64,000 bases of DNA from Escherichia coli. Lineage in GTDB: Bacteria; Pseudomonadota; Gammaproteobacteria; Enterobacterales; Enterobacteriaceae. The notes under the pieces are model-generated. The model did not search any database and was not told where the DNA came from. It was given only the letters and a program-made list of their open reading frames with translations. Below, in pieces: positions 8,811 to 43,034 of this stretch; the stretch's first letter is position 1; each line of letters begins with the position of its first letter. A program made the position numbers and the translations under genes. The stretch lies in NCBI RefSeq assembly GCF_048403405.1, contig NZ_CP183129.1. The stretch is one strand, 5' to 3'.

Positions 8811-8883
8811 TAATTGTGCACAGAAAACCCCCAGCTAGGCTGGGGGTTCCGGAAAGCTTTCAGCTTTAAGCCAGTTATTAAAA

Positions 8884-8952
8884 CCCCTTTTGATTTGTTA
8901 AAACACCTTGCGGTCTGGCAACTGCAAGTGTCAAACAAGAAATCAAAAGGGG
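8884..8952 (+). promoter_or_regulatory. RBS-sequestering stem-loop of IS200 tnpA
   Basis: CCCCTTTTGATTT (8884-8896) is the exact reverse complement of AAATCAAAAGGGG (8940-8952); the right arm covers the AAGGGGG Shine-Dalgarno 7 nt before ATG 8959. Confidence 0.7.
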
Positions 8953-36304: not shown

Positions 36305-36611
36305 ACCAAAAACCTCTTTGCGTCACATTTTTACAACAATTATGGCAGAGAAGAATAATGCCATTGGAATGAAGAGAGTAACGAATGATTAAACTGGCTA
36401 AACCGAATGACGAAAAATTCTGGAAAACAGCACGCAATTTCGTGAAGTGATTATTTTCGTCCCTAAGGAAACCTCATAGGATGCCTGCGGGTGCCTGAGA
36501 CTTTCTGTTTTCAGGCTAACCGGGAATCAGAAAGACGAAGGCCCCGACCGATATTTCTATCAACTGTACTGCACCCATTTTGTTGGACGATGAAATGGAA
36601 TAGCCCCTAAT

Positions 36612-37133
36612 ATGTCAAAGCCAAAATACCCTTTTGAAAAGCGCCTTGAAGTCGTGAATCACTACTTCACAACTGATGATGGTTACAGGATCATCTCGGC
36701 ACGTTTTGGTGTCCCCCGAACCCAGGTCAGGACATGGGTTGCCCTCTATGAAAAACATGGAGAAAAAGGTTTAATTCCCAAACCTAAAGGCGTTAGTGCT
36801 GATCCAGAGTTGCGTATTAAGGTCGTGAAAGCTGTGATCGAGCAGCACATGTCCCTTAATCAGGCTGCTGCTCACTTTATGCTTGCTGGTAGTGGTTCTG
36901 TAGCCAGGTGGCTGAAGGTCTATGAAGAGCGCGGAGAAGCTGGTTTACGCGCGCTCAAGATTGGCACCAAAAGAAACATTGCAATATCAGTTGATCCAGA
37001 AAAAGCGGCATCAGCATTGGAGCTGTCAAAAGACCGACGCATTGAGGATCTTGAAAGGCAAGTTCGATTTCTTGAAACGCGGCTTATGTATCTAAAAAAG
37101 CTGAAAGCCTTAGCTCATCCCACGAAAAAGTAA
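36612..37133 (+). CDS. insJ: IS150 OrfA (InsJ), HTH DNA-binding protein
   Basis: 173 aa MSKPKYPFEKRLEVVNHYFTTDDGYRIISARFGVPRTQVRTWV..; slippery heptamer A_AAA_AAG at 37094-37100 near its 3' end. Confidence 0.9.
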   Translation: MSKPKYPFEKRLEVVNHYFTTDDGYRIISARFGVPRTQVRTWVALYEKHGEKGLIPKPKGVSADPELRIKVVKAVIEQHMSLNQAAAHFMLAGSGSVARWLKVYEERGEAGLRALKIGTKRNIAISVDPEKAASALELSKDRRIEDLERQVRFLETRLMYLKKLKALAHPTKK

Positions 37134-37981
37134 AAGTACTCAACGAGCTAAGGCAGTTTTATCCTCTTGATGAGCTTCTCAGGGCTGCGGAGATACCGCG
37201 CAGTACGTTTTATTACCATCTAAAGGCTCTCAGCAAGCCTGACAAGTATGCGGACGTTAAAAAGCGTATTGGTGAGATTTATCACGAGAATAGAGGCCGA
37301 TACGGATACCGTAGGGTAACGCTGTCTCTTCATCGAGAAGGGAAACAGATTAACCATAAAGCTGTTCAGCGCCTGATGGGAACCCTCTCACTTAAAGCAG
37401 CGATTAAGGTCAAGCGATACCGCTCTTACAGAGGAGAGGTAGGGCAAACCGCCCCTAATGTTCTCCAAAGAGATTTCAAGGCTACGCGGCCAAACGAGAA
37501 GTGGGTTACCGATGTTACTGAATTTGCAGTCAATGGGCGCAAGCTGTATTTGTCTCCAGTAATAGATCTCTTCAACAACGAAGTTATTTCTTACAGCCTT
37601 TCGGAAAGACCAGTGATGAACATGGTTGAGAATATGCTCGATCAGGCATTCAAAAAGCTTAATCCTCACGAGCATCCTGTTCTGCACTCTGACCAGGGAT
37701 GGCAGTATCGTATGAGAAGATATCAAAATATCCTTAAAGAACATGGTATTAAACAAAGCATGTCCAGAAAAGGCAATTGTCTGGATAATGCTGTGGTGGA
37801 GTGTTTCTTTGGAACCTTAAAGTCGGAGTGTTTTTATCTTGATGAGTTCAGTAATATAAGCGAACTGAAGGATGCTGTTACGGAATATATTGAATACTAC
37901 AACAGCAGAAGAATTAGCCTGAAATTAAAAGGTCTGACTCCAATTGAATATCGGAATCAGACCTATATGCCTCGTGTTTAA
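37130..37981 (+). CDS. insK: IS150 OrfB (InsK), DDE transposase; made as OrfAB fusion by -1 frameshift
   Basis: Open -1 frame from the slippery site to 37981 (..[60 protein letters not shown]..); the track shows only the part after the first Met (37376). Confidence 0.8.
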
Positions 37982-38023
37982 CTGTCCAACTTTTTGGGGT
38001 CAGTACACAACCGAGGCCAACGA

Positions 38024-38231
<208 letters not shown>

Positions 38232-38476: not shown

Positions 38477-38647
38477 ATAACCTCCATGGTTTATCGAATC
38501 TTATGTTCGATTTGAACGTTATACGCTGGTTTATTTTGATACCGTTGATGAGATCAAAGATCGGGCGAATTGATTAAAGATAAGCCAGATGGACGTATGG
38601 ATAAGGATTATGGTTTTATTTGTCATACAAATAAATATAATAGGCGC

Positions 38648-38711
38648 TTCCGATGTAGACCCGTATTCTTCGCCTGTACCACGGGTCGGTTTTAGTACAG
38701 GCGTTTTCTTT
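38648..38711 (+). ncRNA. rydC: RydC small regulatory RNA (Hfq-dependent)
   Basis: CTTCCGATGTAGACCCGTATTCTTCGCCTGTACCACGGGTCGGTTTTAGTACAGGCGTTTTCTT recognised from memory as RydC; TATAAT at 38634-38639 upstream; ends in GCCTGTAC..GTACAGGC hairpin plus U-run. Confidence 0.8.
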
Positions 38712-38720
38712 AAATATCCT

Positions 38721-39251
38721 TCAGGAACGTTTACGCGGCATCATGCGTAGAAGTGTGTTGTCCTTCCAGAAATAGTGGTGTGCCAGTGCAGCCGCAGCGT
38801 GCAACCCGATGACAAAATATCCCAGATTCGCCAGCATTTCATGCCACGACTTTAAGCTATCAACCCGTTCGAAATTGGCCTCTGATGCATAAGGCATCGT
38901 CAAACCAAACGCAAACCACGGGTTGCCTCGGTTATACATCATCACCAAACCAATCACTGGCAGCGCAATAAACAGGAGATAAATCACCAAATGTCCCAAA
39001 TGCGCCAGTCCCGTCATCATCGGTTTTGGCTTAGGTATAATCGGCGGGGTTGGGTATTTCAGCCTTAACAAAAGACGAACGACCATCAGCACGAGAATTG
39101 ATATGCCACAGGAAACATGAATCATGTTGATGAGTGGCCGATCGCTACGTGGGAAGAAACCCCGAAACTCCATTGCGCAATACGCTGCGATAACCAGCAT
39201 AAAGACCAGCCAGTGAATGCTGATTTGTAACCTTGAGTATTTATTTCCCAT
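38721..39251 (-). CDS. cybB: cytochrome b561
   Basis: Track ORF 38721..39287 trimmed to ATG 39251 (MGNKYSRLQISIHWLVF..), 176 aa, four TM helices with conserved His. Confidence 0.9.
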   Translation of the reverse strand: MGNKYSRLQISIHWLVFMLVIAAYCAMEFRGFFPRSDRPLINMIHVSCGISILVLMVVRLLLRLKYPTPPIIPKPKPMMTGLAHLGHLVIYLLFIALPVIGLVMMYNRGNPWFAFGLTMPYASEANFERVDSLKSWHEMLANLGYFVIGLHAAAALAHHYFWKDNTLLRMMPRKRS

Positions 39252-39439
39252 AACATTTCCTGCTTTAACATAATTTTCCGTTAACATAACGGGCTTTTCT
39301 TAAAATTTCATTAAATATTGTTCACCCGTTTTCAGTACGTTACGTTTCACGGCAAGAATGTAGATTGCCCATCCCGCCATCGTGGTCTAAGCCTGGAAAG
39401 GATCAATTTTCATCCGAACGTTCCTGACAGGAGAAGACC

Positions 39440-40441
39440 ATGAGTAAAGTTGGTATTAATGGTTTTGGTCGTATCGGTCGACTGGTGTTGCGTCGATTAC
39501 TTGAAGTCAAAAGCAACATAGACATTGTTGCTATTAATGATCTCACTTCCCCAAAAATTCTCGCCTACCTGTTGAAACATGATTCAAACTACGGACCGTT
39601 CCCCTGGAGCGTTGATTTTACGGAAGATTCACTTATCGTTGATGGAAAAAGTATCGCGGTTTACGCCGAAAAAGAGGCTAAAAATATTCCGTGGAAAGCG
39701 AAAGGCGCAGAAATCATTGTCGAATGTACTGGCTTTTATACCTCCGCCGAGAAATCGCAGGCGCATCTTGATGCTGGTGCGAAGAAGGTGTTGATTTCCG
39801 CCCCTGCCGGTGAAATGAAAACCATCGTTTATAACGTCAATGACGACACACTGGATGGCAACGACACCATTGTTTCCGTGGCGTCATGCACCACTAATTG
39901 TCTTGCACCGATGGCCAAAGCCTTGCACGACAGTTTCGGAATAGAAGTCGGCACGATGACGACCATTCATGCCTATACCGGCACTCAGTCACTGGTGGAT
40001 GGCCCGCGTGGTAAAGATCTACGCGCTTCACGTGCAGCGGCAGAAAATATCATTCCCCACACTACGGGGGCGGCAAAAGCCATTGGTCTGGTGATCCCAG
40101 AACTGAGCGGCAAACTGAAAGGTCATGCACAACGCGTACCCGTGAAAACCGGTTCGGTGACTGAACTGGTGTCTATTCTTGGAAAAAAAGTGACTGCCGA
40201 AGAGGTGAACAACGCGCTTAAAAACGCGACAAACAATAACGAGTCATTTGGTTATACCGATGAAGAAATAGTCTCTTCCGATATCATTGGCAGCCATTTC
40301 GGTTCGGTGTTTGATGCCACGCAAACCGAAATTACCGCCGTGGGCGATTTACAACTGGTGAAAACGGTCGCCTGGTACGATAACGAATATGGCTTCGTCA
40401 CGCAGCTTATTCGCACCCTCGAAAAATTCGCTAAACTCTGA
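39440..40441 (+). CDS. gapC: glyceraldehyde-3-phosphate dehydrogenase GapC, full length
   Basis: 333 aa uninterrupted ORF with NAD-binding INGFGRIGR and active-site SCTTNCLAP; good Shine-Dalgarno (AGGAGAA) before ATG 39440. Confidence 0.9.
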
Positions 40442-40448
40442 CGCGCAC

Positions 40449-40472
40449 AGGCGGAGGAAAAAACCTCCGCCT
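40449..40472. terminator. bidirectional terminator between convergent gapC and aldA
   Basis: AGGCGGAGG-aaaaaa-CCTCCGCCT. Confidence 0.6.
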
Positions 40473-40482
40473 CTTTCACTCA

Positions 40483-41922
40483 TTAAGACTGTAAATAAAC
40501 CACCTGGGTCTGCAGATATTCATGCAGGCCATGTTTACCATCTGCGCCGCCAATACCGGATTTACGCCATCCGGCGTGGAAGCCTTGCATAGCTTCGAAG
40601 TTTTCACGGTTGATGTAAGTTTCACCAAACTTCAGCCCTTTAATGGCTTTCATCGCGACGTTCAGATTTTGGGTATAGATTGATGAGGTCAGGCCGTAAT
40701 CACTGTCATTCGCCATTGCGATAGCATCTTCCAGCGTGTCAAATGCGACCACCGGCAGAACCGGGCCAAAGGTTTCCTCATGCATAATCGACATTTCCTG
40801 GCGAACATCCAGCAGCAATGTCGGCGGATAATAATATCCTTTCCCCTCTACCGCTTTGCCACCCAACGCCACTCTCGCCCCTTCTTCTACTGCGCGCGCC
40901 ACTTTTTGCTCGACCCTTTCCAGCGCCGCGGCGTTAATCAACGGCCCCATCGCAATGTCGTTGCGTTCTGCGGGGTTACCAAATTGAACCGCCTGCAACG
41001 CTTCACCCAGCCGATTGACGAACTGATCATAAATGCCTTTCTGTACATAAACACGTTCTGCACAGTTACACACTTGCCCACTATTAATGACGCGTGAATC
41101 AACGATGGCTTTGACTGCCAGTTCAAGATCGGCATCGTCCATTACGATAGCTGGTGCTTTACCCCCCAATTCCAGGCACACTTTGGTGATGTTTTTCGCC
41201 GCAGTCGCCATGATCTTTTCACCTGCAGAGACGCTGCCTGTCATACTGACCATTGCGACCTTTGGGTTACCCGCCAGTTCTTGCCCAACGGTTTCACCAC
41301 GCCCCAGAACAAGGTTAAACACGCCGCGCGGAAGGCCTATTTCATCGACGATTTTGGCGAATGCAATCGCATTGTTTGGCGTAAATTCACTGGGTTTAAT
41401 GACAATGGTATTACCAGTCAAAAGAGCGGGAGCCATTTTGCGGGCAATGAGGAAGAACGGGAAGTTCCACGGCAGAATGCCGGTAGTCACACCAAGCGCA
41501 CGTTTAAACAGAAGAATATTTTCTCCTGGACGATCGCTTTGAATAATCTCGCCCTCGTAACGCCGTGCCCACTCCGCCATGTAATCGATATAGTCCGCAG
41601 TAAAAGCCACTTCGACTTCAGCCAGCTGCTGGATCTTGCCCCCTTCTTCAACAATCAGCGCACTGATTTCACTGGCGCGTTCGCGGATCCCGACGGAGAT
41701 TTTGCGCAACCAACTGGCGCGTTCAATAGCAGGCAACGCTTCCCATTCTGGTTGTGCACGTTCTGCTGCATCGATTGCCTTACGGGCATCCTCGGCCTGA
41801 CCATCGGGAATGCGGGAAATGACAGCCTCTGTAGCAGGGTTTACCACATCAATCCATGCGTCTCCACGCCAGGTAACAAACTGTCCATCAATATACATAG
41901 GATGTTGAACGGGTACTGACAT
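40483..41922 (-). CDS. aldA: lactaldehyde dehydrogenase (NAD-dependent aldehyde dehydrogenase A)
   Basis: 479 aa; ALDH motifs LELGGKAP and catalytic Cys region SGQVCNCAER. Confidence 0.95.
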   Translation of the reverse strand: MSVPVQHPMYIDGQFVTWRGDAWIDVVNPATEAVISRIPDGQAEDARKAIDAAERAQPEWEALPAIERASWLRKISVGIRERASEISALIVEEGGKIQQLAEVEVAFTADYIDYMAEWARRYEGEIIQSDRPGENILLFKRALGVTTGILPWNFPFFLIARKMAPALLTGNTIVIKPSEFTPNNAIAFAKIVDEIGLPRGVFNLVLGRGETVGQELAGNPKVAMVSMTGSVSAGEKIMATAAKNITKVCLELGGKAPAIVMDDADLELAVKAIVDSRVINSGQVCNCAERVYVQKGIYDQFVNRLGEALQAVQFGNPAERNDIAMGPLINAAALERVEQKVARAVEEGARVALGGKAVEGKGYYYPPTLLLDVRQEMSIMHEETFGPVLPVVAFDTLEDAIAMANDSDYGLTSSIYTQNLNVAMKAIKGLKFGETYINRENFEAMQGFHAGWRKSGIGGADGKHGLHEYLQTQVVYLQS

Positions 41923-42919: not shown

Positions 42920-43034
42920 GGTTCCTCCTTATCGTTCCCTTAAGAATACTGCGTGAGATAATAATGAGAAGCGGAGCACTCTGAAAGGAAGATGATGCTT
43001 TTTCTACCTCGCCATCGCGAACCAGACACTGGTT

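Follow-up and report, generated by a model that had tools for sequence, protein, structure and literature searches.

A complete gapC gene in Escherichia coli, encoding a probable second glyceraldehyde-3-phosphate dehydrogenase

In Escherichia coli K-12, gapC is an annotated pseudogene of 1001 nt (b4493 of MG1655, 1489713-1490713). We analysed a stretch of 64,000 nucleotides from another E. coli genome (contig NZ_CP183129.1 of assembly GCF_048403405.1; "the window"), in which the same locus holds an uninterrupted reading frame. This raises two questions: does the window gene encode a working second glyceraldehyde-3-phosphate dehydrogenase (GAPDH), and is it the window or K-12 that represents the usual state of the species? 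Our preferred reading, to which we assign a probability of about 0.9, is that the window carries a normal intact gapC whose product would be a second NAD-dependent phosphorylating type I GAPDH, a minor conditional isoenzyme beside GapA.

The gapC locus and its reading frame

All 1002 nt of the gapC frame were read (Table 1), and they contain no internal stop codon and no frameshift. The earlier note, made from the letters of the window alone, had described an uninterrupted ORF of 333 amino acids with a strong Shine-Dalgarno sequence and with intact NAD-binding and catalytic-cysteine motifs. This description held throughout: no missed lesion came to light and identical sequence occurs in other genomes (see below), the Shine-Dalgarno sequence is a good site, and both residues 5-14 of the glycine-rich motif and Cys150 are present in the translation, as are Asp34 (in AINDL), Cys154, His177 and Arg232.

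Aligned with the window gene, K-12 gapC is 96.1% identical at the nucleotide level and differs at 39 sites, two of which are disabling: (i) A115T, which converts the AAA of Lys39 to TAA, and (ii) a 1-nt deletion that shortens the A7 run to A6, which leads to an immediate TGA at codon 251. K-12 gapC further carries R18G, and all three changes are absent from the window allele. The note had described K-12 gapC as a split pseudogene, which is right, and older K-12 annotations list the gene in two pieces, gapC_1 (b1417) and gapC_2 (b1416) (PMC4512719, PMC2759082). It had also proposed an alignment to K-12 gapC and gapA as a check, and the outcome bears it out: both K-12 lesions are absent from the window gene, and GapA is 47% identical to its product.

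The gene lies between a divergent cybB and a convergent aldA, an order shared by K-12, strain 7/2 and eight other genomes, and the BLAST matches to K-12 are collinear. In both position and identity to b4493 the window gene corresponds to the K-12 locus; it is gapC, an ordinary intact allele at its usual chromosomal position. A GapC of 383 residues, 50 longer than the window protein at 99% identity, appears in several metagenome gene calls (P0002-P0005, P0007, P0024 and P0027). The window has no in-frame start codon (ATG, GTG or TTG) between the preceding stop codon and 39440, so the longer calls are probably artefacts of the gene caller or derive from strains with a different flank.

Table 1. 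Positions in the window of gapC and its features, of the neighbouring genes and of other elements
Feature	Position	Strand	Remarks and basis
gapC CDS	39440..40441	+	333 codons plus TGA, starts with ATG; ORF list and sequence
Shine-Dalgarno AGGAG	39429..39433	+	6 nt 5' of the gapC ATG; direct reading; kept in K-12
NAD-binding glycine-rich motif, GapC residues 5-14	39452..39481	+	translation; aligned with GapA and 7C5F
Codon 39 of gapC	39554..39556	+	AAA (Lys) in the window, TAA (stop) in K-12; pairwise and multiple alignment
Catalytic Cys150 (TGC), SCTTNC motif	39887..39889	+	sequence reading, VASCTTN
Catalytic His177 (CAT)	39968..39970	+	sequence reading, TTIHAYT
A7 run, gene nt 744-750, codons 248-250	40183..40189	+	A6 in K-12; alignments
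cybB-gapC spacer, 188 nt	39252..39439	+	presumed site of divergent promoters; 180/188 nt as in K-12
G+C-rich hairpin GGCGGAGG-AAAAAA-CCTCCGCC	40450..40471	.	between convergent gapC and aldA; folding
cybB	38721..39251		divergent from gapC
aldA	40483..41922		convergent with gapC
IS150	36565..38007		complete, 1443 bp; CAAC on both flanks
sok, Rfam match	36489..36641		ends at or over the left IS150 end
hokB ORF	38082..38231		intact, to the right of IS150
RydC sRNA	38647..38710	+	full-length Rfam match, 92.5 bits
STnc490 Hfq-binding sRNA	8826..8949	+	full-length Rfam match, 146 bits
Segment between ydcF and hrpA	42990..44527		about 1.5 kb, without K-12 counterpart

Frequency, loss and selection across E. 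coli

Of 5426 complete E. coli genomes, 5417 gave a gapC match, which in 5325 was 95-100% identical to the window gene. The 32-mer that spans codon 39 matched exactly in its K-12 TAA form in 1154 of the 5426 genomes (21%) and in its AAA form in 3711, the rest carrying other SNPs in that word. For the second lesion, the low-complexity filter of BLAST would mask an A7 run in a short query, so the A6 haplotype and the match spans were used. The 34-mer of the K-12 A6 haplotype occurred in 1046 of the 5426 complete genomes, and in a rank-spread sample of 39 full-length gapC matches the span was 1002 nt in 32 and 1001 nt in 7. When we read non-K-12-type alleles in nine other genomes (including NRG857C, O104:H4 and O157:H7), all nine proved intact, each with a CDS annotation. 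This puts the share of E. coli with an intact gapC at about three quarters or higher.

The surprise that the earlier note implied at finding gapC intact is not supported: most E. coli have an intact gene, and this had been documented before. That the gene is intact outside K-12 has been known since the 1990s; a 2010 paper reported an intact gene in isolates from the environment and a truncated one in laboratory strains (PMC2949598), UniProt P58072 is the GapC of O157:H7, and gapC is in use as a qPCR marker for E. coli.

Carriers of the K-12 stop allele are found well beyond the laboratory. We sampled 40 of them evenly through the 1154: 28 were natural isolates (from people, pigs, dogs, chickens, food, marine sediment and a frog), 8 were clear laboratory strains and 4 were ambiguous. 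With 28 of 40 sampled carriers being natural, the loss of gapC is a natural lineage polymorphism that is not confined to laboratory strains. The usual account needs correcting in this respect, as the broken gene of about 21% of complete genomes does not stem only from laboratory culture. One of the natural carriers, CP53, has a third lesion, a 1-nt deletion near the 3' end, indicating that decay of its gapC is continuing. With its stop at codon 39 and its frameshift at codon 248, the K-12 allele would represent a derived loss, shared by about one in five sequenced E. coli. About a fifth of E. coli lack an intact gapC, so any contribution that GapC makes can be done without in some niches at least.

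Where gapC is intact, its protein sequence is constrained. Eight intact alleles that differ from the window allele gave pairwise dN/dS values against it of 0.03-0.05, the ratio of means over 44 pairs of intact alleles was 0.037, and 65 of the 76 polymorphic sites are third codon positions. A dN/dS of about 0.04 indicates strong purifying selection on the GapC protein. At synonymous sites the gapC alleles have diverged strongly (mean dS 0.12, up to 0.20), whereas gapA, found in 5425 genomes, is at least 99% identical to the K-12 gene in 5424. The codon adaptation index (CAI) is 0.32 for gapC, 0.22-0.34 for its neighbours and 0.84 for gapA. Three observations point to a minor role of GapC: its low CAI relative to gapA, its high dS against a nearly invariant gapA, and its natural loss in 21% of genomes.

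We tentatively raise the possibility that the polymorphism is ecological, and not a matter of laboratory domestication, with the double-lesion allele fixed in a large natural lineage and purifying selection acting elsewhere; this goes further than our main reading and we would not yet favour it. Should GapC be a GAPDH for low temperature or for starvation (sigma-S) on which cells depend outside the host, then a lineage that has lost it would be one that has abandoned this part of the life cycle, and if the ecological explanation were true, the source strain of the window would be a gapC-proficient representative. K-12 metabolic models and the essentiality of gapA should not be transferred blindly to wild E. 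coli, the majority of which keep a second, potentially active GAPDH.

Beyond E. coli, annotated full-length orthologues of gapC, 87-96% identical, are present in E. albertii, Citrobacter, Trabulsiella, Klebsiella (oxytoca group), Enterobacter and others. Lateral transfer has been claimed for gapC (PMC1796617); the spread of these orthologues across the Enterobacteriaceae is at least compatible with a long residence of the gene in the family. Within E. coli the alleles look mosaic: in the alignment, strain 980-2 follows the window allele over about the first 560 nt and then an allele of the O104:H4/O8:H8 type, which suggests intragenic recombination at gapC. Five gapC matches and two gapA matches fell on records labelled as plasmids, which are probably mislabelled or chimeric replicons.

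Expression of gapC

The divergent promoters of cybB and gapC are presumed to lie in the spacer between the two genes. A scan for the sigma-70 consensus over 39150-40650 returned one weak match, inside the 5' end of cybB, versus 2.0 expected by chance, and we rejected this match as a gapC promoter. Published work points to sigma-S. In K-12, a ChIP-seq peak of sigma-S RNA polymerase lies on the gapC/cybB spacer (PMC4447067), and gapC transcripts are rpoS-dependent and raised under carbon limitation (PMC2759082, PMC4512719). The gapC promoter is active in fresh water, and laboratory strains retain this environment-specific promoter while mutations truncate the protein (PMC2949598). EPEC, which has an intact gapC, does transcribe it, at a reduced level in a csrA mutant (PMC6333774). 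Most likely, then, the window gene would be transcribed from a sigma-S-dependent promoter in the spacer, with its expression tied by the literature to carbon limitation, stationary phase or fresh water, and GapA would stay the main glycolytic enzyme. The low CAI of gapC fits a conditionally expressed, sigma-S-dependent isoenzyme better than it fits a main glycolytic enzyme.

Downstream, the G+C-rich hairpin between gapC and aldA has a folding energy of -18.5 kcal/mol (z = -4.8 versus shuffled sequences) and is followed by a weak T tail, TCTTTCAC. A simple terminator scan did not list this hairpin; it listed seven others, of which six fall within gapC and the seventh in the cybB-gapC spacer. 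The hairpin is likely a shared terminator of the two convergent genes, a function suggested by its fold and position.

The same data bear on a second possibility: gapC of the window may be intact yet cryptic, expressed too weakly for meaningful GAPDH activity, which would leave the strain with a single working GAPDH in practice, and on its way to the loss seen in K-12. A CAI of 0.32, no sigma-70 match above chance, natural loss in at least 1154 genomes and the further decay in CP53 would all agree with such a state. However, the dN/dS of about 0.04 was obtained over divergent intact alleles and full-length orthologues are present in several genera, which shows that selection has kept the protein, and both sigma-S binding and regulated transcripts have been published for the gene (PMC4447067, PMC2759082, PMC6333774). 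We consider a cryptic gapC unlikely and continue to favour a gene that serves, under particular conditions, as a minor second GAPDH.

Enzymatic identity of GapC and other features of the window

The window protein scored 446.2 bits against TIGR01534 (type I GAPDH; curated NCBIfam cut-off 367.2), with residues 3-325 aligned to positions 1-330 of the 330-position profile. Precomputed annotation placed both PF00044 and PF02800 in P0001, the representative of its 98%-identical cluster, and in all listed homologues. The window protein has the acidic residue of type I GAPDH that favours NAD over NADP (Asp34) as well as the cysteine of SCTTNC and the catalytic histidine (Cys150 and His177). We rejected three narrower assignments: (i) a GapA-type GAPDH (NF011954 / PRK15425), at 302.4 bits versus a cut-off of 662; (ii) Epd (TIGR01532 / NF010058), at 277.4 bits versus 530.55 and 279.9 versus 539; and (iii) an ArsJ-associated GAPDH, whose model score was far under its cut-off. 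GapA (b1779), the main glycolytic GAPDH, shares fold, chemistry, catalytic Cys and His and type I class with GapC; it differs in more than half of its residues, in codon adaptation and in being nearly invariant across E. coli.

A search of the PDB connected the window protein to a characterised enzyme. Entry 7C5F and related entries are an E. coli GAPDH with 330 of 333 residues identical to window GapC. This protein, EcGAPDH1 (7C5F and the 7C5G-7C5R series; P58072), is the product of the same gene, has the same length, and matches at Cys150, His177 and the NAD-binding residues. The differences are I29V and two Asn near 262-265 that become Gln and Thr, each of which also occurs among the other natural alleles that we read. 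Purified wild-type EcGAPDH1 had a KM of 0.73 mM for glyceraldehyde-3-phosphate (G3P) and a high turnover, in assays at 50 C and pH 10 that are far from physiological; C150A abolished activity, C150S lowered it about 3.8 x 10^4-fold and H177A about 8 x 10^3-fold, and structures with NAD, G3P, the thioacyl intermediate and 1,3-bisphosphoglycerate (BPG) were solved (PMC8615399).

The claim of the earlier note that the gene is apparently functional gains from this match, as an intact frame here encodes a protein all but three of whose residues are those of a purified, catalytically active E. coli GAPDH; on this likeness, window GapC is predicted to be active. It would form the standard GAPDH tetramer and, by analogy with the near-identical enzyme, would oxidise G3P to BPG with NAD as acceptor; Cys150 would carry the thioacyl intermediate and His177 would act as the base.

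Among the GAPDH paralogues of E. coli, Epd has changed its substrate. Epd (GapB), the erythrose-4-phosphate dehydrogenase of the same superfamily, could serve as a precedent for a GapC that does something other than glycolytic oxidation of G3P, whether by running in the gluconeogenic direction, by using an Epd-like aldehyde phosphate or by a moonlighting function at the cell surface. The modest identity to GapA would leave room for this, and gapC has been placed among putative gluconeogenic genes (PMC2759082). On the other side, the 99%-identical characterised enzyme uses G3P, turns it over with NAD at a high rate and binds both G3P and BPG in crystals (PMC8615399), and the Epd models stay far below their cut-offs. 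Gluconeogenic use would in any case leave the GAPDH reaction itself unchanged. In the literature that we searched on secreted GAPDH of EHEC and EPEC, gapC is not mentioned. A different role is thus quite improbable in our judgement, and glyceraldehyde-3-phosphate dehydrogenase remains the activity that we would expect of the window protein.

Finally, the chance is negligible that a fault of sequencing or assembly, such as a miscounted homopolymer, has masked a K-12-type lesion in the window gene: the K-12 frameshift does lie at a classic error site (A7 versus A6), but the independently assembled complete genome of strain 7/2 has the same 1002 nt at 100% identity (RefSeq CDS WP_000048645.1) and a match of 100.0% extends over the 12 kb around gapC in four or more other complete genomes, from independently sequenced human isolates, which excludes a sequencing artefact, while codon 39 lacks the other K-12 lesion too and 37 further sites differ from K-12, so this is no misread K-12 allele.

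We noted several other features in the window (Table 1). Upstream of gapC, IS150 is inserted in the hokB/sokB toxin-antitoxin locus, where it cuts the toxin reading frame off from sok and the regulatory 5' part of the hok mRNA. The junction between IS150 and hokB/sokB occurs in 556 of 5426 complete genomes, and CP53 has the same junction but no intact gapC. RydC occupies the interval from ydcA to cybB, its location in K-12 too, and a second sRNA, STnc490, lies in the first part of the window. At the place of the segment between ydcF and hrpA, strain 7/2 has three hypothetical CDS and a gene fragment annotated.
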